This document shows positions 871 to 55,528 of a stretch of 64,000 bases of DNA, piece after piece; position 1 is the stretch's first letter, and each line of letters begins with the position of its first letter. The translations under genes were made by a program, and so were the position numbers. This DNA comes from an uncultured Candidatus Saccharibacteria bacterium. Its GTDB lineage: Bacteria; Patescibacteriota; Minisyncoccia; UBA6257; 2-01-FULL-56-20. Below the pieces are notes generated by a model. It searched no databases. It saw only the letters and a program-made list of their open reading frames with translations, and was not told where the DNA came from. Where the stretch lies: positions 394 to 64,393 of the forward strand of contig CAZYEL010000001.1 of NCBI GenBank assembly GCA_964646415.1, given 5' to 3'.

Positions 871-953
871 GAGTGCAGCGCAAAGTCATATCGAACAAAC
901 CTCTATTCAGCGATGAATAGGGGTTTGTACGTTTTAGGCGGCAAAAAACCAAC

Positions 954-990
954 GGCCCCGATGGAATTTCCATCGGGGCCGTGTGCGTTT
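954..990 (+). terminator. rho-independent terminator-like hairpin downstream of ORF 1..870
   Basis: The inverted repeat 'ggccccgatgg aattt ccatcggggcc' forms a GC-rich stem, followed by 'gtgtgcgttt'. Confidence 0.45.
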
Positions 991-1010: not shown

Positions 1011-1061
1011 TCAATGTTTAGGAAGTCCGACTTCCTAAGGGAAGTCGGACTTCGGGGAAAC
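1011..1061. repeat. direct repeat copy A flanking the vapBC module (contains palindrome GGAAGTCCGACTTCC twice)
   Basis: 'tcaatgtttaggaagtccgacttcctaagggaagtccgacttcggggaaac' is ~90% identical to copy B at 1712..1760, in the same orientation. Confidence 0.7.
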
Positions 1062-1080
1062 GATGCAATAACTTATCGTT

Positions 1081-1452
1081 TCAAATCCGCCGCACGGAGA
1101 GACCCTTCACTTTCATAAAATCGCGGACGTTCCTCGTGAGCAAGATACTCCCCGTAAAAAGCGCAGTGGCGGCAATCACGCTGTCGGACACGCCCACCCG
1201 GTGCACACGGCGGACGCTCGCTGCCAGTCGGGCGATTTGAGAGTCCACAGGGATAAGGGCGACTGCGGCAAGCAATTCTTCAATGCGTGATGCTTCGGCG
1301 TCGGTGAGCGAGGGAAAGCTTAAAAGCTCGAGCTGGGTGATAACCGACACGTACACAGGGGCGTCTCCATCAAACGCTTCTTGCACTACCGACGTATTCA
1401 CCAACTGCCCTTTAAGGTGGTAAATGACCGCGTTGGTATCAAGCGTGAACAC
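1081..1452 (-). CDS. vapC: PIN-domain toxin VapC (type II toxin-antitoxin system); GTG start
   Basis: 123 aa. The N-terminal 'FTLDTNAVIYHL' and conserved acidic residues fit a PIN fold (MFTLDTN..., D at position 5, later E and D). 'RNVRDF' near the C-terminus is typical of VapC. Confidence 0.8.
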   Translation of the reverse strand: MFTLDTNAVIYHLKGQLVNTSVVQEAFDGDAPVYVSVITQLELLSFPSLTDAEASRIEELLAAVALIPVDSQIARLAASVRRVHRVGVSDSVIAATALFTGSILLTRNVRDFMKVKGLSVRRI

Positions 1453-1461
1453 AGCGGCTTA

Positions 1462-1635
1462 TTTCGCGCGACGCTCCCACTCCTTCCGAATCTGTTTGAG
1501 TTCTCGCAACGGGTCGGGGACGCGATGTTTCCACATCCCCCTTGCCTTTTCCCACACGGCGAGACGCTCGCGCCCGCGCAGAGGAAGGATGCGGGGACCA
1601 ATGGGTAGTTTTGTGCTTGTGCCTGTCTGTGGCAT
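1462..1635 (-). CDS. putative antitoxin (VapB-like), 58 aa, below the ORF-track length cutoff
   Basis: Manual translation of the minus strand gives MPQTGTSTKLPIGPRILPLRGRERLAVWEKARGMWKHRVPDPLRELKQIRKEWERRAK. It ends 7 nt before the vapC start. A small basic protein in the antitoxin position. Confidence 0.45.
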
Positions 1636-1711
1636 ACACTCATAGTACCTTTTCGCACCACCGCGTCAATTTCTGCGACGGGAATAAAAATCGGGAAGCA
1701 CTCAAGGTTTT

Positions 1712-1760
1712 TCAATATGAGGAAGTCCGACTTCCTTAAGGAATCCGGACTTCGGGGAAC
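1712..1760. repeat. direct repeat copy B flanking the vapBC module (promoter/operator side of vapB)
   Basis: 'ttcaatatgaggaagtccgacttccttaaggaatccggacttcggggaac' matches copy A at 1011..1061. Confidence 0.7.
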
Positions 1761-1784: not shown

Positions 1785-4319
1785 TTATATCACCACCACG
1801 CCCGCAATTCTGTCTCCTGAACTCAAGTTCATAATCCGCACGCCTTGCGCGGAGCGGCCGGTCTGGCGGACGCTCTTTAGCTCCGTCCGAATCACCTGCC
1901 CCTTCGCCGAGAGCGCGAGCATTTCCATCTCCTCGCTCACCACCGTTCCCGCAACCACCTTTCCCGTCTTCGCGGTCACGTTCGCGGTCTTGATGCCGGA
2001 ACCGCCGCGGTTCTGGGTTTTATATTCCTTAAGCGGCGTCTGCTTCCCGAATCCGTTCGCCATAACCACCAAAAGTTTCGCGGTGTCCCCCTTCTTCACG
2101 ATGTCGCACCCCGCGACCGCGTCGCCCGTGCGAAGCCGGATGGCACGCACACCCGCCGCGCCGCGCCCCATGGGACGCGCTTGCGACTCCGCAAAACGGA
2201 CGGATTGCCCTTGTTCCGTTACCAGTATCACCTGCTCGTCGCCTTTCGAAATCCGCACCCACTTCAGCAGGTCGCCTTTTTTTCCGCCCGAGGCGGATCC
2301 GCCTTTGGTGGACAACTTAATCCCGATGATGCCCGTGCGGCGGATGTTTTCGAAATCCTTAAGCGCGGTCTTTTTCACTATCCCATGCTTGGTTACCATC
2401 ACAAGATAGATTCCCTTGTCGCTTGTCGCTTGTCGCTTGTCGCTCGATGGCAGGTTCACAATCGCGCTCACGCTTTCTTCGGCAGGAAGTTCGAGGAAGT
2501 TATGAATCGCTTTCCCTTTCGAGGTGCGGCTCGCGGCGGGGATTTCGTACGCACGCGTTTCGAATACTCTCCCGCGGTCGGTGAAGAAAAGAATCCGGTC
2601 GTGCGTGTTCGCGTGGAAGAAATGCGAAAGGAAATCCTCGTCCGCCACGTCCGACCCGATGAGCCCCTTCCCGCCCCGCCGCTGCGCTTTGAAGGAATCC
2701 GGCGGTACGCGTTTGATGTACCCGCTCGAAGAGAACGTCACAATAGCCTCCTCTTCGGGAACAAGGTCCTCGTCCGTCATTTCTTTGAGGGCAGAGTTCA
2801 CCACATGCGTCCGCCGCGCATCGCCGTATTTGGTTTTGAGTTCCGCAAGCTCCTGCTTCACCACCTCGAGCATCCGCGCGGGGCTCTTCAAAATAAGCGT
2901 GAGTTCTTTTATGAGCGCCCGTTTCTCCTTGAGTTCCGCATCGATTTTCTCACGCTCAAGCGCCGCCAAAGTCTGGAGCTTCATTTCCAAAATTGCCACC
3001 GCCTGGAGCTCCGAGAGCTTGAACCCTTTCATGAGGTTCATCCGCGCATCCTCGCGGTCCTTTGATTTCTTGATGGTTGCAATCACCTTGTCGATTACGT
3101 CCAAGGCCTTCGCAAGCCCTTCCAAAATATGCGCCCGCTCTTCCGCTTTCCTTAAATCGAACTGCGCGCGGCGGCGCACGATTTCCTTGCGATGCGCGAT
3201 GTAGGCGAGGAGCATCTCCTTCAGGGAGAAAAGCTCCGGCTGGATGCCGTCCCGCAAGGCAATCATATTGAAATGAAAATCCTTCTGGAGGTCGGAGTGC
3301 TGGTAGAGCTGGTTCAATACTTTCTGCGGCGCGGCGTCGGACTTGAGCTCCACCACAATCCGCAGGCCTTCGCGGTCGGACTCGTCGCGGAGGTCGCGGA
3401 TGCCTTCTACGCGCTTATCCGTAACGAGCATCGCAATGTGCTTCACAAGCTCGGACTTGTTCACCTGGTAGGGAATTTCCGTGATGACAATGTCGAACCC
3501 CCCCTGCCTGCCGGCAGGCAGGCGCGCACCACTCTCTCCCTTCTTGCGCTCCACAATCTCCGCTTTCGCGCGGGCCGTTACCGCGCCGCGCCCCGTCGCA
3601 TACGCCGTCCGAATAGCGGCGCGGTCGTAAATAACGCCGCCCGTCGGGAAATCCGGCCCCTTCACGTGCTCCAACAAATCCTCCCCCGTCGCGCCGGGCT
3701 TCTCCATAAGAAGAAGCGTCGCGTCCACCACCTCCACAAGGTTGTGCGGCGGGATACTCGTCGCCATCCCCACCGCGATTCCCAAAGTGCCGTTAATCAA
3801 AAGGTTGGGGAGCTTCGCGGGGAATACTTTCGGCTCCTCGCGGGTCGCGTCATAGTTCGGCAGCCAGTCCACCGTTTCTTTCTCGATATCAAAAAGCATC
3901 TCCTCCGCGACTTTCGAGAGACGCGCTTCCGTGTACCGCATCGCTGCGGGAGAATCCCCGTCGACGCTGCCGAAGTTTCCCTGCCCCTGCACAAGCGGGT
4001 ACCGGAGCGAGAAGTCCTGCGCCATCCGCGCGAGCGTGTCGTAAATCGCCACGTCGCCGTGCGGGTGGTATTTCGCCATCGTCTCGCCCACCACATTCGC
4101 CGATTTCCTGAACCTGGCGAGATGCGTGAGGCCGATGGACCACATGGTCCAAAGCACGCGCCGATGCACCGGCTTCAGCCCGTCGCGCACGTCCGGCAGG
4201 GCGCGCGCGACAATGACCGACATGGCATAGTCGAGGTAGGATTCGCTAAGCTCGCTCGTGATTGGACGTTTTTCTACGTTGTCTGGCATAGCATCGGATT
4301 TCGTGCTTCGGACTTTCAC
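1785..4319 (-). CDS. gyrA: DNA gyrase subunit A (probable true start at 4289, MPDNVEKRPITSEL...)
   Basis: Matches GyrA throughout: N-terminal 'YLDYAMSVIVARALPDVRDGLKPVHRRVLW', the active-site Tyr region and a C-terminal beta-pinwheel. Contains an in-frame (CGACAAG)4 heptad repeat at 2414..2444. Confidence 0.95.
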   Translation of the reverse strand: MKVRSTKSDAMPDNVEKRPITSELSESYLDYAMSVIVARALPDVRDGLKPVHRRVLWTMWSIGLTHLARFRKSANVVGETMAKYHPHGDVAIYDTLARMAQDFSLRYPLVQGQGNFGSVDGDSPAAMRYTEARLSKVAEEMLFDIEKETVDWLPNYDATREEPKVFPAKLPNLLINGTLGIAVGMATSIPPHNLVEVVDATLLLMEKPGATGEDLLEHVKGPDFPTGGVIYDRAAIRTAYATGRGAVTARAKAEIVERKKGESGARLPAGRQGGFDIVITEIPYQVNKSELVKHIAMLVTDKRVEGIRDLRDESDREGLRIVVELKSDAAPQKVLNQLYQHSDLQKDFHFNMIALRDGIQPELFSLKEMLLAYIAHRKEIVRRRAQFDLRKAEERAHILEGLAKALDVIDKVIATIKKSKDREDARMNLMKGFKLSELQAVAILEMKLQTLAALEREKIDAELKEKRALIKELTLILKSPARMLEVVKQELAELKTKYGDARRTHVVNSALKEMTDEDLVPEEEAIVTFSSSGYIKRVPPDSFKAQRRGGKGLIGSDVADEDFLSHFFHANTHDRILFFTDRGRVFETRAYEIPAASRTSKGKAIHNFLELPAEESVSAIVNLPSSDKRQATSDKGIYLVMVTKHGIVKKTALKDFENIRRTGIIGIKLSTKGGSASGGKKGDLLKWVRISKGDEQVILVTEQGQSVRFAESQARPMGRGAAGVRAIRLRTGDAVAGCDIVKKGDTAKLLVVMANGFGKQTPLKEYKTQNRGGSGIKTANVTAKTGKVVAGTVVSEEMEMLALSAKGQVIRTELKSVRQTGRSAQGVRIMNLSSGDRIAGVVVI
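2414..2444. repeat. heptanucleotide microsatellite (CTTGTCG)4 inside gyrA, encoding SDKRQATSDK
   Basis: Four perfect tandem 7-mers. The sense-strand 31-mer 'agcgacaagcgacaagcgacaagcgacaagg' is identical to 28826..28856 inside uvrD. Confidence 0.9.
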
Positions 4320-4624: not shown

Positions 4625-5187
4625 GCGGGCTTCAACGCAATAGTTTTCGTCCCTTGCATAGCCTCCAGGTCTTTTTTGCGGAACACGAACTTTTCTTCAA
4701 CGCCCCCGCTCTCGCCCATTTCTTTGAGGAACGGCGCGGGCGACTTTTCGTACGCGGGAATCACCACCTTCGGCTCGATTTGGCGCACCAGTTTTTCCGC
4801 CGCTTCATCGCTCAAATACTTCCCGCCCAGCCGGAGAAACACCACATCCGGCTCATTCAGCTTTTCCAAGAGGTCGGCTTCGAGAACTTTTTCGAGAGGC
4901 CCCAGGAACGCGAACGTCACATCCTCCCACCGCACGAGATGCGCCGTGTACGCCCGCCCAGGCTTTGCCTCAAGCGCAATACCGCGCACTTCTATCCCTT
5001 TGGACTCGTATTCGCCGGGGAACGCAAACTCCGTTTGCGGGCCCGGCTCCGCGCCAGAGGCGGGAGTTTCCGCATCGGTTTTGAGCACGATATCGCCCTT
5101 CAAACGATTCGAAACGGGGTCCACAAGGACCGAAATTTCGCCACTCTGAATGCGGAATGAACCCTCGCCTTGATAGGTAATAACCAC
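4621..5187 (-). CDS. MBL-fold metallo-hydrolase (UPF0173/YtkL-like)
   Basis: 188 aa. The N-terminus 'MVITYQGEGSFRIQSGEISVLVDP' is typical of the UPF0173 beta-lactamase-fold hydrolase family. Confidence 0.55.
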   Translation of the reverse strand: MVITYQGEGSFRIQSGEISVLVDPVSNRLKGDIVLKTDAETPASGAEPGPQTEFAFPGEYESKGIEVRGIALEAKPGRAYTAHLVRWEDVTFAFLGPLEKVLEADLLEKLNEPDVVFLRLGGKYLSDEAAEKLVRQIEPKVVIPAYEKSPAPFLKEMGESGGVEEKFVFRKKDLEAMQGTKTIALKPA

Positions 5188-5246: not shown

Positions 5247-6347
5247 ATGGCAGAATCGGCAAACAACAAACCGGCGCAGAGCACGCTTCTCGATGCCCTC
5301 AAAAACACCATTCCCCCAAGCGAGTGGCCGAAGGAAGGAAGCGTTGCCGAGGTGAAATTGCTCCGGAAAACAGACCGTAAGGTCTTTTTCGATATGGGGA
5401 AATTCGGCACCGGCATCGTGTGGGGAGCGGAACTCCTGAACGCACGGGAAATGGTGAAAGATTTGAAAGCCGGCGATGCCTGCCTCGCGAAAATAAAAGC
5501 CATCGAATCCGACGAGGGGTTCATTGAACTCTCGCTCGCCGAAGCCGGAAGGGAGCGGCTCTGGCAGCAAGCAAGAGAATTCCTTGAATCGGGTGAGCTT
5601 GTGAAAGTTAAAGTGGTGGGCGCGAACGCGGGAGGGCTCACTGCAACCCTTTTCGACCTCAAGGCGTTCCTTCCCGTTTCGCAACTTTCGCAGGAGCACT
5701 ACCCGCGCGTCGAGGACGGCGACCGCCAGAAAATTTTCGACGAACTCAAGAAATTTATCGGGCAGGAACTCACGGTGAAGGTAATCGACGTGAACCCGCG
5801 GCACAACAAGTTCATTCTTTCCGAGCGCGAGGTGGTGAGCGGGAACGTGAAGGAGCTTCTGAAGAAATACAAAACGGGCGACGAAATTCAGGGACTGGTG
5901 ACTGGCATTGCGGACTTTGGCGCGTTCGTGCGCTTCGTGGACGAGCCGCAGCTCGAGGGACTTATCCATATCTCCGAGCTTGCACATGCGCTCGTGGACA
6001 ATCCGAAAGACGTGCTCAAAGTGGATGAAACAGTAAAGGCAAAAATTATCGACATCCGCGAAGACGGGCGGGTGTTCCTCTCACTCAAGGCGCTCCAGGC
6101 GGACCCGTGGACGACGCTCGGCGACCGCTACAAGAAAGGAGATGAGGTAGAGGGCAAGGGCTACAAGCTCAATCCCTTCGGCGCCATCGTTGACCTCGGC
6201 GGCGGCATCCAGGGCACCGTCCACATTGCGGAATTTGAGTCCGCGGACACAATGAAAAAAATACTCACGCCAGGCGGCACACACAGGTTTGTGGTTGAAA
6301 CGGTGAAACCGGAGGAGAAAAGGATTGTACTCAAACTGAAGAAATAA
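5247..6347 (+). CDS. rpsA: 30S ribosomal protein S1 (short 4x S1-domain form)
   Basis: 366 aa with repeated S1 OB-fold motifs: 'GxVxGxVxxIxDFGAFVxF', 'EGLIHISELA', 'GAIVDLGGGIQGTVHIAEF'. Confidence 0.8.
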   Translation: MAESANNKPAQSTLLDALKNTIPPSEWPKEGSVAEVKLLRKTDRKVFFDMGKFGTGIVWGAELLNAREMVKDLKAGDACLAKIKAIESDEGFIELSLAEAGRERLWQQAREFLESGELVKVKVVGANAGGLTATLFDLKAFLPVSQLSQEHYPRVEDGDRQKIFDELKKFIGQELTVKVIDVNPRHNKFILSEREVVSGNVKELLKKYKTGDEIQGLVTGIADFGAFVRFVDEPQLEGLIHISELAHALVDNPKDVLKVDETVKAKIIDIREDGRVFLSLKALQADPWTTLGDRYKKGDEVEGKGYKLNPFGAIVDLGGGIQGTVHIAEFESADTMKKILTPGGTHRFVVETVKPEEKRIVLKLKK

Positions 6348-20222: not shown

Positions 20223-20846
20223 TTACGACTTCTTCACAATTTGGTCAATCAAGCCGTACTCTTTCGCTTCCGCGGCGGTCATGTAGAAATCGCGGTCGGT
20301 GTCTTTCTCTATTTTCCCGATAGCCTGTCCCGTGTGCTTCGCGAGAATCTGGTTGATGTTGTCTTTAATCTTAATAATGTGCCGCGCGGTGATTTCCACT
20401 TCGGTTGCCTGGCCCTCGGCGCCACCCATGACCTGGTGCAGAAGAATTTCCGAGTTTGGCAACGTGAAGCGCTTCCCCTTCTTTCCCGCAGCGAGCAGCA
20501 CCGCGCCCATTGACGCCGCCATGCCTACGCACATCGTAACCACATCCGGCTTCACATACTGCATCGTGTCGTAAATCGCCATTCCCGCCGTTACCGACCC
20601 GCCGGGAGTATTCAGGTACAACTTAATATCTTTTTTCGAATCCTCATGCTCAAGGAACAGTAACTGGGCAATCACATTATTTGCCACCGCATCATTCACG
20701 GGTCCTCCCAAAAAAATGATGCGCTCTTTGAGAAGGCGGGAATAAATGTCGTACGCCCGTTCGCCATACTGGCTTTTTTCGATAACGGTGGGGATAAGAT
20801 TCATCTTGGCATAAATCCGAAACTCTAATTTCGAAATCCTAAACAA
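20223..20846 (-). CDS. clpP: ATP-dependent Clp protease proteolytic subunit (probable start MNLIPTV at 20804)
   Basis: Catalytic Ser region '[14 protein letters not shown]' and 'RIIFLGGPV'. Confidence 0.9.
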
Positions 20847-20940
20847 ATGACAAATTCTAAACTCGAATGCTCCAAACTTTGGAATTTAGATATTCGTGTT
20901 TGGAATTTGTTTAGAGTTTCGTGTTTCGATATTCGGATTT
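20824..20940. repeat. AT-rich palindromic intergenic element (cargo-less member of the TTGGAATTT/GAAATCCGAATATCGAAA repeat family)
   Basis: Left arm 'tcgaaatcctaaacaaat' and right arm 'atttgtttagagtttcgtgtttcgatattcggattt' are inverted. The right arm reverse complement shares an exact 18-mer 'gaaatccgaatatcgaaa' with 39972..39989. Confidence 0.7.
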
Positions 20941-28617: not shown

Positions 28618-30456
28618 ATGGATTTATCTAACCTTGATCCTCAGCAACAACGCGCCGTACAATCTCCCCATGTTCCGCTCCTGATCGTCGCAGGAGCAGG
28701 AACGGGGAAAACACGCACGCTCACAAGCCGACTTCTTCTTTTTATCGAACAAGGGGTGGCGCCTTCCCGCATTTGCGCGCTCACCTTCACCAATAAAGCG
28801 GCGCGGGAGATGGCAGAGCGGGTCCAGCGACAAGCGACAAGCGACAAGCGACAAGGAGAACCGTTCATCGGCACATTCCACTCGCTTGGCGCACGAATCT
28901 TGCGCGCCGACGCGCGCGAGCTTGGCCGCACTCCGCACTTCACGATTTTCGACGACCATGATGCGCTCTCCGCAATAAAAAAAGTGCTGAAGGAATTGGA
29001 TATGAGAAGCACCAAGCCCGCACGCCTTCTTCAACTCATCTCTTTCACAAAAAGCGGCGCGGCGCGCGGAGAAAAATTCCACGCTAAGAACGAACAAGCG
29101 GCGCTGGAGCGTTACGAGACTTTCCTTGCGCGCAACAATGCTTTTGACTTCGACGACCTCATTGCAAAAACCGTATGGCTTTTCGAAAAGAAGCCCGCAA
29201 TTCTCGCAAAATACCGAGAGCGCTACACGCACATCCTCGTTGACGAATACCAAGACGTGAGCCCCGGGCAATACGCCCTCGTACGCCTCCTTGCGGGGCA
29301 ACGCAACCAAGTAAGCGTCGTGGGAGACGACGCGCAGATGATTTACGGATGGCGCTATGCGAACCTCGAAACCTTTCTCGGTTTCGAGCGGGATTGGCCA
29401 AATGCCCGCGTCGTTTTCCTCGAAGAAAACTACCGATCCACCGCAACAATCGTGCACGCAGCTTCCGCGGTCATCGCTCACAACAAAATAGCCCGCGAAA
29501 AGAATCTCTGGACGCAGAACCCCGACGGGGAACCGCTTGCCATTATTGAAACAGCCGATGAGAACGACGAAGCGGAGTGGGTGGCGCAGCGCATAGCTGC
29601 GCAGTATGAGAGTAAAAATAAACATGCCGAACCTCATTCTCATACCCATGCTTATTCTTCCCCTTCGACGGCCGTGCTCTACCGCACGAACGCCCAATCG
29701 CGCGCAATCGAGCAAGCGCTCCTGCGGCGCGGCATTCCATACCGTATCTATGGCGGTCTTAAATTCTACGAGCGCCGGGAAATAAAAGATATTATCGCCG
29801 CGCTTCGCCTCACCCTGAACCCCCAAGATGAGATAAGCCGTGAACGGCTCGAGAAAGCGTTCCGGGTGCGCACATTCCGCGAGCTCCTTCCCATACTCCT
29901 CGCAAACGGCAAAAAAAGTCCCGCCGCGGCAATCCAATCATTCCTCGCCGCAGCAGATTATTTCGATTACCTGGAACGGGAAATGACAAACTCCGAAGAG
30001 CGCCGCGAGAACATAAGCGAACTCATCCGCTTTGCGGAAGGGTTTGCCGAACTTGCACCCTTTCTTGAGCATGTCGCATTAGTGCAATCAACTGACGATA
30101 TGAATGCGAGCAAGCAATCGCTCTCCTCCGCAAACAAACCTGCCGCGCATCTTTCCACCATTCATCTCGCAAAAGGTCTTGAATTTGACCGGGTATTTCT
30201 CGTAGGGTGCGCGGAAGGGCTTCTTCCCCACGCACGCTCAATGGAAAGCGGAGAGGGAATAGAAGAGGAGCGCCGGCTTATGTACGTTGCCATGACGCGC
30301 GCGCGGCAGGAACTTGCAATCTCATTCTTTGGAATTCCTTCCCGGTTTATCGGTGAAATCCCCGCCGGTTTGCCACATTTCATACGAACCGAACACTCTT
30401 CCGATTTTGAAGCGGGAACCGGCGAAACCGAAATCCAGCTTCTGGACGAAGAATAG
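28618..30456 (+). CDS. uvrD: UvrD/PcrA-family ATP-dependent DNA helicase
   Basis: Motif I 'AGAGTGKTRTL', Ia 'TFTNKAAREM', II 'ILVDEYQDV' and motif VI region 'YVAMTRARQEL'. Contains the in-frame (GCGACAA)4 repeat at 28826..28856. Confidence 0.9.
   Translation: MDLSNLDPQQQRAVQSPHVPLLIVAGAGTGKTRTLTSRLLLFIEQGVAPSRICALTFTNKAAREMAERVQRQATSDKRQGEPFIGTFHSLGARILRADARELGRTPHFTIFDDHDALSAIKKVLKELDMRSTKPARLLQLISFTKSGAARGEKFHAKNEQAALERYETFLARNNAFDFDDLIAKTVWLFEKKPAILAKYRERYTHILVDEYQDVSPGQYALVRLLAGQRNQVSVVGDDAQMIYGWRYANLETFLGFERDWPNARVVFLEENYRSTATIVHAASAVIAHNKIAREKNLWTQNPDGEPLAIIETADENDEAEWVAQRIAAQYESKNKHAEPHSHTHAYSSPSTAVLYRTNAQSRAIEQALLRRGIPYRIYGGLKFYERREIKDIIAALRLTLNPQDEISRERLEKAFRVRTFRELLPILLANGKKSPAAAIQSFLAAADYFDYLEREMTNSEERRENISELIRFAEGFAELAPFLEHVALVQSTDDMNASKQSLSSANKPAAHLSTIHLAKGLEFDRVFLVGCAEGLLPHARSMESGEGIEEERRLMYVAMTRARQELAISFFGIPSRFIGEIPAGLPHFIRTEHSSDFEAGTGETEIQLLDEE
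28826..28856. repeat. heptanucleotide microsatellite (GCGACAA)4 inside uvrD, encoding RQATSDKRQ
   Basis: 'agcgacaagcgacaagcgacaagcgacaagg' is a 31-nt exact sense-strand match to the gyrA copy. Confidence 0.9.
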
Positions 30457-39967: not shown

Positions 39968-40030
39968 GCACGAAATCCGAATATCGAAATCCTAAACAAA
40001 TCCGAATGAGCCAAATTCCAAATTCCAAAG
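39968..40030. repeat. upstream inverted-repeat arm of four-helix-bundle gene cassette (TTGGAATTT family)
   Basis: 'gcacgaaatccgaatatcgaaatcctaaacaaatccgaatgagccaaattccaaattccaaagg'. Shares the 'aatatcgaa ...(23-24 nt)... aaattccaa' layout with the reverse complement of 40381..40452 and an 18-mer with 20824..20940. Confidence 0.65.
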
Positions 40031-40380
40031 GGAAAACGTACGACCTCGAAGAGCGGGCGCTTCTGTTCACCAAACGAACAGCCCGATATGTAAATAAACT
40101 TCCGAAGACCATACCGAACGTAGAAAGCGGCAAGCAGCCTATGAGAGCTAGCGGTTCCGTCGGGGCAAACTACATTGAAGCGAATGAGTGTTTGGGCAAG
40201 AAAGACTTTGCAATGAAGATCAAAACATCAAAAAAGGAGGCGAAGGAAGCTAGATACTGGCTCGCAATCACCGAACCTGCGCCCGAGGAAGAAAAAGAGA
40301 AAGAGGCGCTTTCTCAAGAAGCTACAGAACTCATGAAGATCTTCGGGTCAATTCTCGAAAAGACGAAATGGGCGGTATAA
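40006..40380 (+). CDS. four-helix-bundle protein (23S rRNA intervening-sequence protein / TIGR02436 / Avd-like family)
   Basis: 124 aa. 'YDLEERALLFTKRTARYVNKLP...ASGSVGANYIEANE...SKKEAKEARYWL' matches the family signature. Confidence 0.6.
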   Translation: MSQIPNSKGKTYDLEERALLFTKRTARYVNKLPKTIPNVESGKQPMRASGSVGANYIEANECLGKKDFAMKIKTSKKEAKEARYWLAITEPAPEEEKEKEALSQEATELMKIFGSILEKTKWAV

Positions 40381-40452
40381 TGGGCTTGAAACTTCGTGCT
40401 TGGAATTTAGTAATTGTTTCGTGTTTTGATATTCGATATTAGAAATTTTCAC
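40381..40452. repeat. downstream inverted-repeat arm of the four-helix-bundle gene cassette
   Basis: 'tgggcttgaaacttcgtgcttggaatttagtaattgtttcgtgttttgatattcgatattagaaattttcacg'. Confidence 0.6.
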
Positions 40453-55371: not shown

Positions 55372-55528
55372 ACTGCCAGCATAGCCGGAAAGTTCTAAAT
55401 TTCAAATCCCAAATTCCAAAAATCTCAAAACCAAAACCTCCAATTACTTCAAACTGTGCGCCGATCATTCGGTTGGAATTTGGAGCTTGGGGATTGGAAT
55501 TTGTAAGGTGTGGGGTATAGTGGGAAGA

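Follow-up and report, generated by a model that had tools for sequence, protein, structure and literature searches.

Direct repeats around a vapBC module downstream of gyrA in a Saccharibacteria contig: a probable duplication of intergenic DNA at a REP-like palindrome

We analyzed a stretch of 64,000 nucleotides (nt), hereafter the window, from an uncultured Candidatus Saccharibacteria bacterium (assembly GCA_964646415.1, contig CAZYEL010000001.1), in which a vapBC toxin-antitoxin module downstream of gyrA is bracketed by two direct repeats, copies A and B, each built around a palindrome. The analysis placed the window on contig JACPQV010000019.1 of GCA_016190325.1, which its source assigns to Candidatus Liptonbacteria (Patescibacteria). 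The explanation we favor, with a probability of roughly two in three, is that the repeats are a local duplication of about 70–80 bp of post-gyrA intergenic DNA that arose when vapBC inserted beside a palindrome resembling the repetitive extragenic palindromic (REP) elements. Read along the minus strand, the order is gyrA, spacer, unit B, promoter, an open reading frame (ORF) of 58 aa, vapC, unit A and terminator. The repeat units are composed as follows:

990 to 1059, unstranded: repeat copy A, made up of the locus-specific flank TCGGGGAGCACACAAGGCTCCTCAATGTTTAG, the palindrome (1022-1053) and GGGGAA, between the vapC stop codon and the terminator
1070 to 1081: outer part of the copy A unit, AACTTATCGTTT, which abuts the vapC stop codon and is set apart from the palindrome block by an indel of ~10 nt
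1691 to 1759, unstranded: repeat copy B, with the unit as in A, 24 nt past the gyrA stop codon
1758 to 1769: outer part of the copy B unit, AACTTATCGCTT, a match of repeat family D7

A previous examination of this DNA from its letters alone (the sequence-only reading) had described repeats of ~90% identity, ~700 bp apart and in the same orientation, and these proved to be present where it had placed them. Copies A and B are direct repeats separated by 700 bp and 90% identical over 40 ungapped nt; a gapped alignment stretches them to 70 nt with one gap (990-1059 versus 1691-1759), and an extra 12-nt match, AACTTATCGYTT, belonging to D7, is found at 1070-1081 and 1758-1769. Together they form the longest local direct repeat of the window. 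The 15-mer GGAAGTCCGACTTCC, allowing up to two mismatches, has its sole sites in the two repeat copies, and its six strand-hits, against 0.09 expected, were reached by none of 100 shuffles. Outside the palindrome, the alignment score of the left flanks of A and B was equalled in 0 of 2,000 shuffles and that of the right-hand 12-mer match in 29 of 2,000. The non-palindromic part of the unit, TCGGGRAGCACWCAAGGYTYYTCAAT, is common to A and B (0/2,000 shuffles), and overall the copies diverge by about 10–15% plus one indel of ~10 nt. Each copy had also been credited with two tandem palindromes; the sequences are there, but they are reverse complements of each other and hence make up a single 32-nt palindrome, GAAGTCCGACTTCC-N4-GGAAGTCGGACTTC, with 14-bp arms and a 4-nt centre. 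Copy A (1022-1053) is a perfect palindrome; copy B (1722-1753), with two mismatches in the arms, reaches 88% complementarity. The calculated RNA fold energies are −25.5 kcal/mol (z −5.4) for A and −18.4 kcal/mol (z −2.7) for B. This palindrome is, as REPs are, a short sequence (about 20–40 nt) able to form a stem-loop.

The state of the locus before vapBC can be read from relatives. A search with GyrA led us to the contigs of the five closest ones (L128, L129, L130, L221 and L223; 79–83% GyrA identity), all of which keep the upstream order S1 protein, Lactamase_B_3 protein, ~102-aa protein and gyrA, and none of which carries vapBC after gyrA. The closest, L128 (GCA_016186635.1; GyrA 83% identical, synteny kept), has a single palindrome, CAGAAGTCCGACTTCCGTAAGGAAGTCGGACTTCC, located 38 nt past the gyrA stop codon. 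It is followed by TAATATTGA..., GAAACG and then the orthologous terminator hairpin, ACGGCCCC...GGCCGT. This is the kind of empty site that the sequence-only reading had proposed to look for, with one palindrome, no vapBC and the terminator retained. The flanks of the single L128 unit have their orthologues in the outer flanks of B (on the gyrA side) and of A (on the terminator side). In their non-palindromic parts A and B are more alike than either is like L128, from which TCGGGRAGCACWCAAGGYTYYTCAAT is missing. The palindrome arms are identical in the window and L128 although the neighboring intergenic DNA is barely alignable, which indicates that the palindrome is either constrained or renewed. 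Other relatives carry different sequences in the same slot: a nested palindrome, GAGGTTCAACCTT-N10-AAGGTTGAACCTC, in L129 (8452-8496), CCTCCGAC-CAAA-GTCGGAGG in L221 (5119-5150), and yet another hairpin in L130 (8455-8503). As L129 and L221 keep the downstream terminator but differ in the palindrome, the slot before the gyrA terminator turns over palindromic elements.

The comparison bears directly on whether vapBC was gained or lost here. Direct repeats commonly recombine and delete what lies between them, which would yield the single unit seen in L128, so vapBC between two units might be the ancestral arrangement, from which the relatives lost vapBC by recombination while keeping one unit. 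We consider this improbable. All five relatives lack vapBC, three of them carry other hairpins in the slot, and loss in five relatives is the less parsimonious course; the L128 flank differs far more from the flanks of A and B than these do from each other, as fits a duplication younger than the split, and the vapBC homologue present in the L128 genome lies at a different locus. We infer, then, that vapBC was gained at this site rather than lost from it.

A second line of evidence comes from how far the similarity between the copies extends. It continues for ~30 nt past the palindrome, and since this flank is common to A and B, missing from L128 and not found beside palindromes in other genomes, the duplicated DNA is resident and lineage-specific. 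The sequence-only reading had suggested searching for the palindrome and the whole unit elsewhere, and the outcome separates the two: the palindrome recurs in at least 120 loci, whereas the non-palindromic parts of the unit are specific to this locus and lineage. The 'ATTGA' flank is likewise not enriched next to other palindromes as part of a mobile unit (8/185 observed, about 3 expected), and among nine other palindrome pairs extended flank similarity was absent but for one cyanobacterial 47-nt unit. These observations leave very little room for copies A and B being independent insertions of a mobile REP-like or MITE-like (miniature inverted-repeat transposable element) sequence that happened to land on either side of vapBC. 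The palindrome is indeed dispersed and often lies just downstream of stop codons, as REPs do (PMC3733652), and the relatives show turnover of different palindromes in the slot; nevertheless, A and B share the ~30-nt non-palindromic flank together with AACTTATCG, neither of which is part of the element elsewhere, and the only two copies in 64 kb lie 700 bp apart in identical orientation.

The genes and signals against which the position of the palindromes has to be judged are these:

892 to 931, plus strand: hairpin with 18-bp arms followed by TTTT (inverted repeat I3), downstream of the plus-strand gene at 115-870
942 to 982, minus strand: canonical intrinsic terminator, a GC-rich stem of 14–15 bp (hairpin 982-952) followed by TGGTTTTTTG
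1081 to 1452, minus strand: vapC, encoding a 123-aa PIN-domain toxin (Pfam PIN, E 1e-16)
1459 to 1635, minus strand: vapB-like ORF of 58 aa in the antitoxin position, a homologue of which precedes the 83%-identical VapC in locus L133
1642 to 1669, minus strand: sigma-70-like promoter TTGACG-16-TACTAT, whose −10 box ends 6 nt before the vapB ATG
1785 to 4319, minus strand: gyrA, 844 aa from the first start codon (834 aa in the NCBI annotation)

The nearest VapC homologue, 83% identical, is found in locus L133, which belongs to the same metagenome-assembled genome (MAG) as L128 but lies on another contig, where its vapBC adjoins genes for an IS256-type transposase and a ParE toxin. Similarity between the two modules ends at the −35 box and at the stop codon, and the L133 locus contains no GAAGTC palindrome. 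Because that vapBC does without it, the palindrome neither travels with vapBC nor serves as its operator. Type II antitoxins usually bind palindromes near their own promoter, and copy B does lie upstream of the vapBC promoter; still, autoregulatory binding of VapB or VapBC to these palindromes is hardly credible, and we rejected the operator as a candidate. The copy B palindrome is 53–84 nt upstream of the −35 box and copy A is downstream of vapC, the palindrome occurs in L128 without vapBC and in many unrelated contexts (at least 120 loci), the 83%-identical module of L133 lacks it, and no DNA-binding domain was detected in the 58-aa ORF. The view that the repeats are more than an operator, already voiced in the sequence-only reading, is borne out by the presence of the palindrome without vapBC at this site in L128 and its absence from the L133 module.

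We then examined the palindrome as a sequence family. With one genome taken per species, a scan for GAAGTCCGACTTC-N(4-12)-CGGACTTC returned the doublet in at least 120 loci of Patescibacteria, Chloroflexota, Cyanobacteria, an Ignavibacterium MAG and others. Among the matches listed, the Patescibacteria comprised Giovannoni-, Saccharibacteria, Ryan-, Sung-, Lipton-, Moran-, Wolfe- and Brennerbacteria, the Chloroflexota comprised Caldilineaceae and Anaerolineae (on contigs of up to 337 kb), and the Cyanobacteria comprised Caldora and Symploca; several genomes hold at least 5–9 exact doublets each. The conserved part is only the 13–15-mer R-GAAGTC-S-GACTTC-Y, with random flanks. Its 5–7-nt centre varies but stays self-complementary (fully so in 32 of 53 centres of 5 nt), and the position-specific composition of 175 flanks revealed only a purine preference at position −1 and no conserved GTAG or CGTC tag. 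A literature search with exact 11–13-mers returned only unrelated short hairpin RNA and primer matches. We rejected a sequencing-adapter artefact: only 8 nt match TCCGACTT/AAGTCGGA, the ends of MGI adapters, which the motif resembles, and the palindrome occurs in many independent assemblies, among them several sequencing runs of the window population, with contigs 100% identical, and the early, Illumina-sequenced GW2011/RIFCSP assemblies.

Thirty-six of the 49 doublets in Patescibacteria lie inside long stop-free frames. Of the ten intragenic doublets that we scanned, four fall in RecG and the others in UvrA, Mfd, DnaG, class I aminoacyl-tRNA synthetases and a glycosyltransferase. In the RecG of three Giovannonibacteria the palindrome sits at one shared place, just past the CPRIE motif (L038, 5908-5938; L078, 6170-6200; L033, 2845-2875), and it is read in two frames, as EVRLLREVGLP or as RKSDFxGKSDFL; conservation thus extends to the DNA palindrome but not to the peptide. 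The class I aminoacyl-tRNA synthetase ORFs of Giovannonibacteria (L064, 1-2811; L043, 2-2038) also have a complete His_Phos_1 domain nested in the catalytic domain. In Chloroflexota and Cyanobacteria the palindrome forms the centre or the end of longer, genome-specific repeated units (L009, L022, L024 and L120; L032 and L090 of Caldilineaceae ABC1.76; L089 of Symploca), for example units whose ends are ACTAGTACAC inverted repeats, or the 47-nt unit with a GATCGC motif. The L089 units (at 1687 and 2773) flank a 201-aa ORF that by inspection resembles an Uma2/DUF820-type endonuclease and adjoins a gene pair resembling, by eye, a DUF433/PIN-like toxin-antitoxin module.

The same palindrome class is associated with genes for Y1 transposases of the HUH type. 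Three loci contain an ORF of 220–240 aa with a palindrome on both sides and a third copy within it:

L034, 515 to 1231: Y1-like gene with internal palindrome
L083, 4169 to 4876: Y1-like gene with internal palindrome
L117, 7140 to 7805: Y1-like gene with internal palindrome

The flanking palindrome is that of the window in L034, a close variant, GGAAGTSSSACTTCC, in L083 and CAGTGGTCGGA... in L117, and in L034 identical hairpins surround the gene in direct orientation. All three proteins show the HUH (NH[YF]H) and Y-I-x-x-N-P motifs. The L034 protein scores 21.7 bits against Pfam PF01797 (Y1_Tnp), just under the cut-off of 23, and the best match of the three in NCBIfam, also below threshold, is NF047646, the REP-associated tyrosine transposase (RAYT), with 35.5, 32.2 and 22 bits against a cut-off of 80; in a sequence search of the PDB the sole, marginal match was ISDra2 TnpA (E 0.09). 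The family has at least 7,697 homologues, most of them with a precomputed PF01797 match, and the few that carry a name are called 'transposase', 'putative transposase' or 'hypothetical protein'. In a survey of 80 homologous metagenome loci (L141-L220) against 89 control windows of equal size, 50 of the Y1 genes had their own recurrent palindrome, which flanks the gene on both sides in 37 cases and has a copy within it in 24, and no control did. The GAAGTCSGACTTC palindrome flanks and lies within the genes of L034, L143, L145 and L148. Cores vary from gene to gene: L143, L145 and L148 have GAAGTCSGACTTC, and other genes have GGAGGTTSAACCTC, which is also the type downstream of gyrA in L129, or GGTGTCSGACACC, GAGGTCSGACCTC and further sequences. 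The post-gyrA palindrome of L129, AAGGTTSAACCTT, represents a separate class, which also flanks the Y1 genes of L175 and L210. Genes with identical arms encode proteins that are 5 percentage points more identical (2/5,000 permutations). The internal in-frame palindrome lies ~170–200 nt from the start of the gene, upstream of the HUH motif (L034, L083 and L117; 24/80 loci). Since the window-type palindrome flanks genes of a Y1 family in which 50/80 carry a recurrent palindrome of their own, against 0/89 controls, it behaves like a REP element, and by its sequence and context we assign it to a REP-like family tied to IS200/RAYT-like genes.

Comparison with the published REP systems is largely consistent with this assignment. 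REPs flank tnpA_REP (RAYT) genes and can sit in frame within them, and genomes may hold REPs without a transposase gene (PMC6006769). They lie downstream of ORFs, form inverted dimers and occur inside replication and repair genes (PMC6006769, PMC3733652), and they are targets both of DNA gyrase and of integrating insertion sequences (IS) (PMC3733652). The window palindrome is likewise short, stem-loop-forming and an inverted dimer, and lies just downstream of ORFs, in 3′ untranslated regions (UTRs), both here and in L128; the same palindrome flanks single Y1 genes with HUH (NH[YF]H) and Y---NP motifs, and copies are found in frame in the transposase gene and in RecG, UvrA, Mfd and DnaG. There are also differences. 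REP hairpins carry a conserved GTAG or CGTC tetranucleotide at the foot (PMC3733652), whereas the window-type palindrome has no such tag and no conserved flanks. Its arms are perfect and each is itself palindromic, and the 13-mer is common to several phyla. Most doublets in Patescibacteria are intragenic (36/49) rather than between genes. In subclass 2.4 such internal inserts are located between HUH and Y (PMC6006769), whereas the internal copy here is upstream of HUH. Finally, the Y1 proteins do not reach the NCBIfam RAYT threshold (35 versus 80 bits), and the window contains only two copies. On balance the element, as far as sequence comparison can tell, works like a REP and shares most of the defining features of REPs. 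A parallel is offered by the Rickettsia palindromic elements (RPEs), palindromic repeats that lie in frame in housekeeping genes (PMC3733652). Window-type palindromes are also found in frame in Patescibacteria housekeeping genes, at related loci outside the window; RPEs, however, measure 100–150 bp and are restricted to Rickettsia, whereas the window-type palindrome spans 31–33 bp and occurs in several phyla.

The bracketing by two similar hairpins in the same orientation, together with a Y1 family (PF01797) weakly similar to ISDra2 TnpA, recalls IS200/IS605 elements and their non-autonomous derivatives, the palindrome-associated transposable elements (PATEs), which have a subterminal hairpin at the left and the right end. 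These elements insert without target duplication beside a specific tetra- or pentanucleotide, and their ends share the hairpin only. In the window, by contrast, 70–80 nt are duplicated, including ~30 nt of locus-specific flank, and a single hairpin was ancestral at the site. We therefore rejected an IS200/IS605 element with cargo. Nor do the units qualify as attC sites, although a small toxin-antitoxin module between structured repeats and a relative with a one-repeat empty site are reminiscent of integron cassettes. attC sites are imperfect, bulged and variable in sequence and are used with an adjacent intI/attI, and integron cassettes are usually promoterless; here, copy A is a perfect palindrome, different phyla share the 13-mer arms unchanged, vapBC comes with a promoter, and the window showed no integrase motif. 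The cassette-type insertion proposed by the sequence-only reading is thus upheld as far as an insertion product is concerned, given the empty site of L128, but not as an integron/attC or dedicated site-specific recombination product, which the perfect, conserved hairpin and the separate promoter contradict. That reading had also suggested looking for an integrase or tyrosine recombinase, and a crude motif scan of the 64-kb window found none; in particular, no window ORF of at least 150 aa showed the box I plus box II pattern of tyrosine recombinases.

A broader version of the idea would have the units act as cassette recombination sites, at which a circular molecule of vapBC plus one unit integrated, by a Y1/RAYT-like HUH enzyme in trans, by a tyrosine recombinase or by RecA using the shared repeat, and from which it could be excised again. 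Campbell-type integration would be expected to turn one unit at the empty site into two flanking the insert, as observed, the module is highly compact and stops precisely at the unit, and the vapBC homologue of L133 is likewise bracketed by a direct repeat (24 nt, 83% identical, at 4733-4756 and 5652-5675, 919 bp apart). Moreover, HUH Y1 enzymes act on such hairpins (PMC6006769). We nevertheless hold this to be unlikely. The similarity between the copies reaches ~30 nt past the palindrome into locus- and lineage-specific sequence, as in target duplication rather than exchange at a core site; a Campbell-type donor circle would already need the identical locus structure, so the origin is merely moved back a step, and the originating event must in any case have duplicated the 70–80-bp target. 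In addition, the other palindrome pairs in the fetched loci share the palindrome only and enclose no cassettes, no recombinase or Y1 gene was found in the window, and the contigs of the population that encode VapC, the 58-aa ORF or GyrA are all identical, with no empty-site or excised variant among them. The core of the L133 repeat, AAGGGTTTGAGGGGC, is unrelated in sequence to the window repeat. A further suggestion is that REP-like units are capture and excision sites: small modules such as vapBC would enter at a resident unit, come to lie between two units and later be moved or lost, either through host recombination or through a trans-acting HUH enzyme of the Y1/RAYT-like kind. We would give it little credence; if it held, it would amount to an integrase-free cassette system in the small genomes of Patescibacteria. 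The layout itself is an ordinary genome rearrangement and not an integron-like cassette system.

Under the duplication that we favor, the ancestral locus would have consisted of the gyrA stop codon, a short spacer, one 32-nt palindrome, ~35 nt and a canonical terminator, the palindrome being a REP-like element of the class GAAGTC-S-GACTTC with the gyrA 3′ UTR as its ancestral home. After the split from the closest sequenced relative, a compact vapBC module of 610 bp, from promoter to vapC stop, would have inserted beside the palindrome and left a copy of the resident unit on each side, in the manner of a very long target-site duplication. As to the mechanism, we conjecture that the palindrome most likely suffered either a staggered break that was then repaired or an accident of replication, and later exchange between copies A and B is possible. 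At present copy B lies in the gyrA 3′ UTR, upstream of the vapBC promoter, and copy A in the vapC 3′ UTR, before the old terminator, and both would be transcribed as stable stem-loops. By analogy with the role proposed for REPs, these hairpins may protect the 3′ ends of the gyrA and vapC transcripts, and the direct repeats would make vapBC deletable by recombination.

Several observations weigh against this account. The window holds only two copies of the palindrome, so the element may be a low-copy relic in this genome, and neither a crude motif scan nor a broader Y1 profile, built from the metagenome loci, found a Y1 gene in the 64 kb. Copies of the palindrome in Chloroflexota and Cyanobacteria have no cognate Y1 gene in the fetched loci; the broader profile added no Y1 gene in these or in the loci of the relatives. 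Graded similarity of the palindrome arms does not follow the identity of the Y1 proteins (r = −0.05, not significant). To our knowledge, no transposition or repair mechanism has been documented to make a target duplication of 70–80 bp. The divergence of about 10–15% plus an indel between A and B points either to an event some time ago or to separate sources of the two copies. The duplication could also look younger than it is if A and B had undergone gene conversion, in which case loss of vapBC in the relatives would be conceivable.

The analysis resolves a cassette-like layout into the insertion of a toxin-antitoxin module next to a REP-like hairpin, accompanied by a target duplication of unusual length, and a cleanly documented empty site in a sister genome is rare. 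One palindrome class, GAAGTC-S-GACTTC, spans Patescibacteria, Chloroflexota and Cyanobacteria, lies mostly within housekeeping genes in Patescibacteria and is tied to a very large, barely annotated Y1 family, extending the biology of REPs and RAYTs to lineages missing from the published surveys and offering a marker of insertion hot spots in reduced genomes.

With regard to the locus itself, the unduplicated insert measures ~610 bp; it starts ~20 nt ahead of the −35 box and ends with the vapC stop codon, and unit A begins 1–3 nt past that codon. The enclosed genes are those named by the sequence-only reading, a PIN-domain protein and a 58-aa ORF for which domain-family searches returned neither a family match nor a recognizable DNA-binding domain. 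In VapC, inspection identified the acidic residues D5, E42 and D90 and an NVRD motif; its matches to NCBIfam VapC families are below threshold, and NCBI annotates it as a VapC family toxin. As in type II VapBC systems, a PIN-domain toxin follows a small adjacent ORF, which ends 6 nt before vapC, and both are served by a single promoter; unlike in those systems, the protein in the antitoxin position has no detectable DNA-binding domain and there is no palindrome at the promoter itself. The 58-aa ORF is, by its position, a candidate antitoxin, and we call it vapB-like. At the equivalent place the L133 homologue has the promoter TTGACA-17-TATAAT, and in both modules (window, 1635-1642; L133, 4840-4851) the −10 box ends 6–8 nt before the antitoxin start with no Shine-Dalgarno sequence, which suggests that the vapBC mRNAs are leaderless. 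The gyrA stop had been given correctly as one border of the region; the terminator at the other border, however, had been assigned to the upstream plus-strand gene. The T-run of the 982-952 hairpin is on the minus strand, so this hairpin terminates the gyrA/vapBC transcript, and in sequence it has the form expected at the end of a gyrA-vapBC transcription unit; the hairpin is kept in L128, L129 and L221. The hairpin at 892-931 is probably the terminator of the plus-strand gene at 115-870. An Rfam scan of positions 700-2000, with E values up to 1, returned only a chance microRNA match.

Finally, the window contains two further sets of repeats. The heptamer (GCGACAA) is repeated four times in tandem, on the sense strand and in frame, both in gyrA (2412-2447, minus strand) and in a UvrD/PcrA-like helicase ORF of 612 aa (28618-30456, plus strand; repeats at 28823-28856). 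The runs encode ...SDKRQATSDK... in GyrA and ...QRQATSDKRQ... in the helicase, and form an inverted pair, 97% complementary, 26 kb apart. The AT-rich repeats CGAAATCCTAAACAAAT / TTGGAATTTGT occur in direct and inverted orientation at 20818-20940, 39971-40449 and 55390-55504, and constitute a second repeat family of this genome, unrelated to the palindrome.

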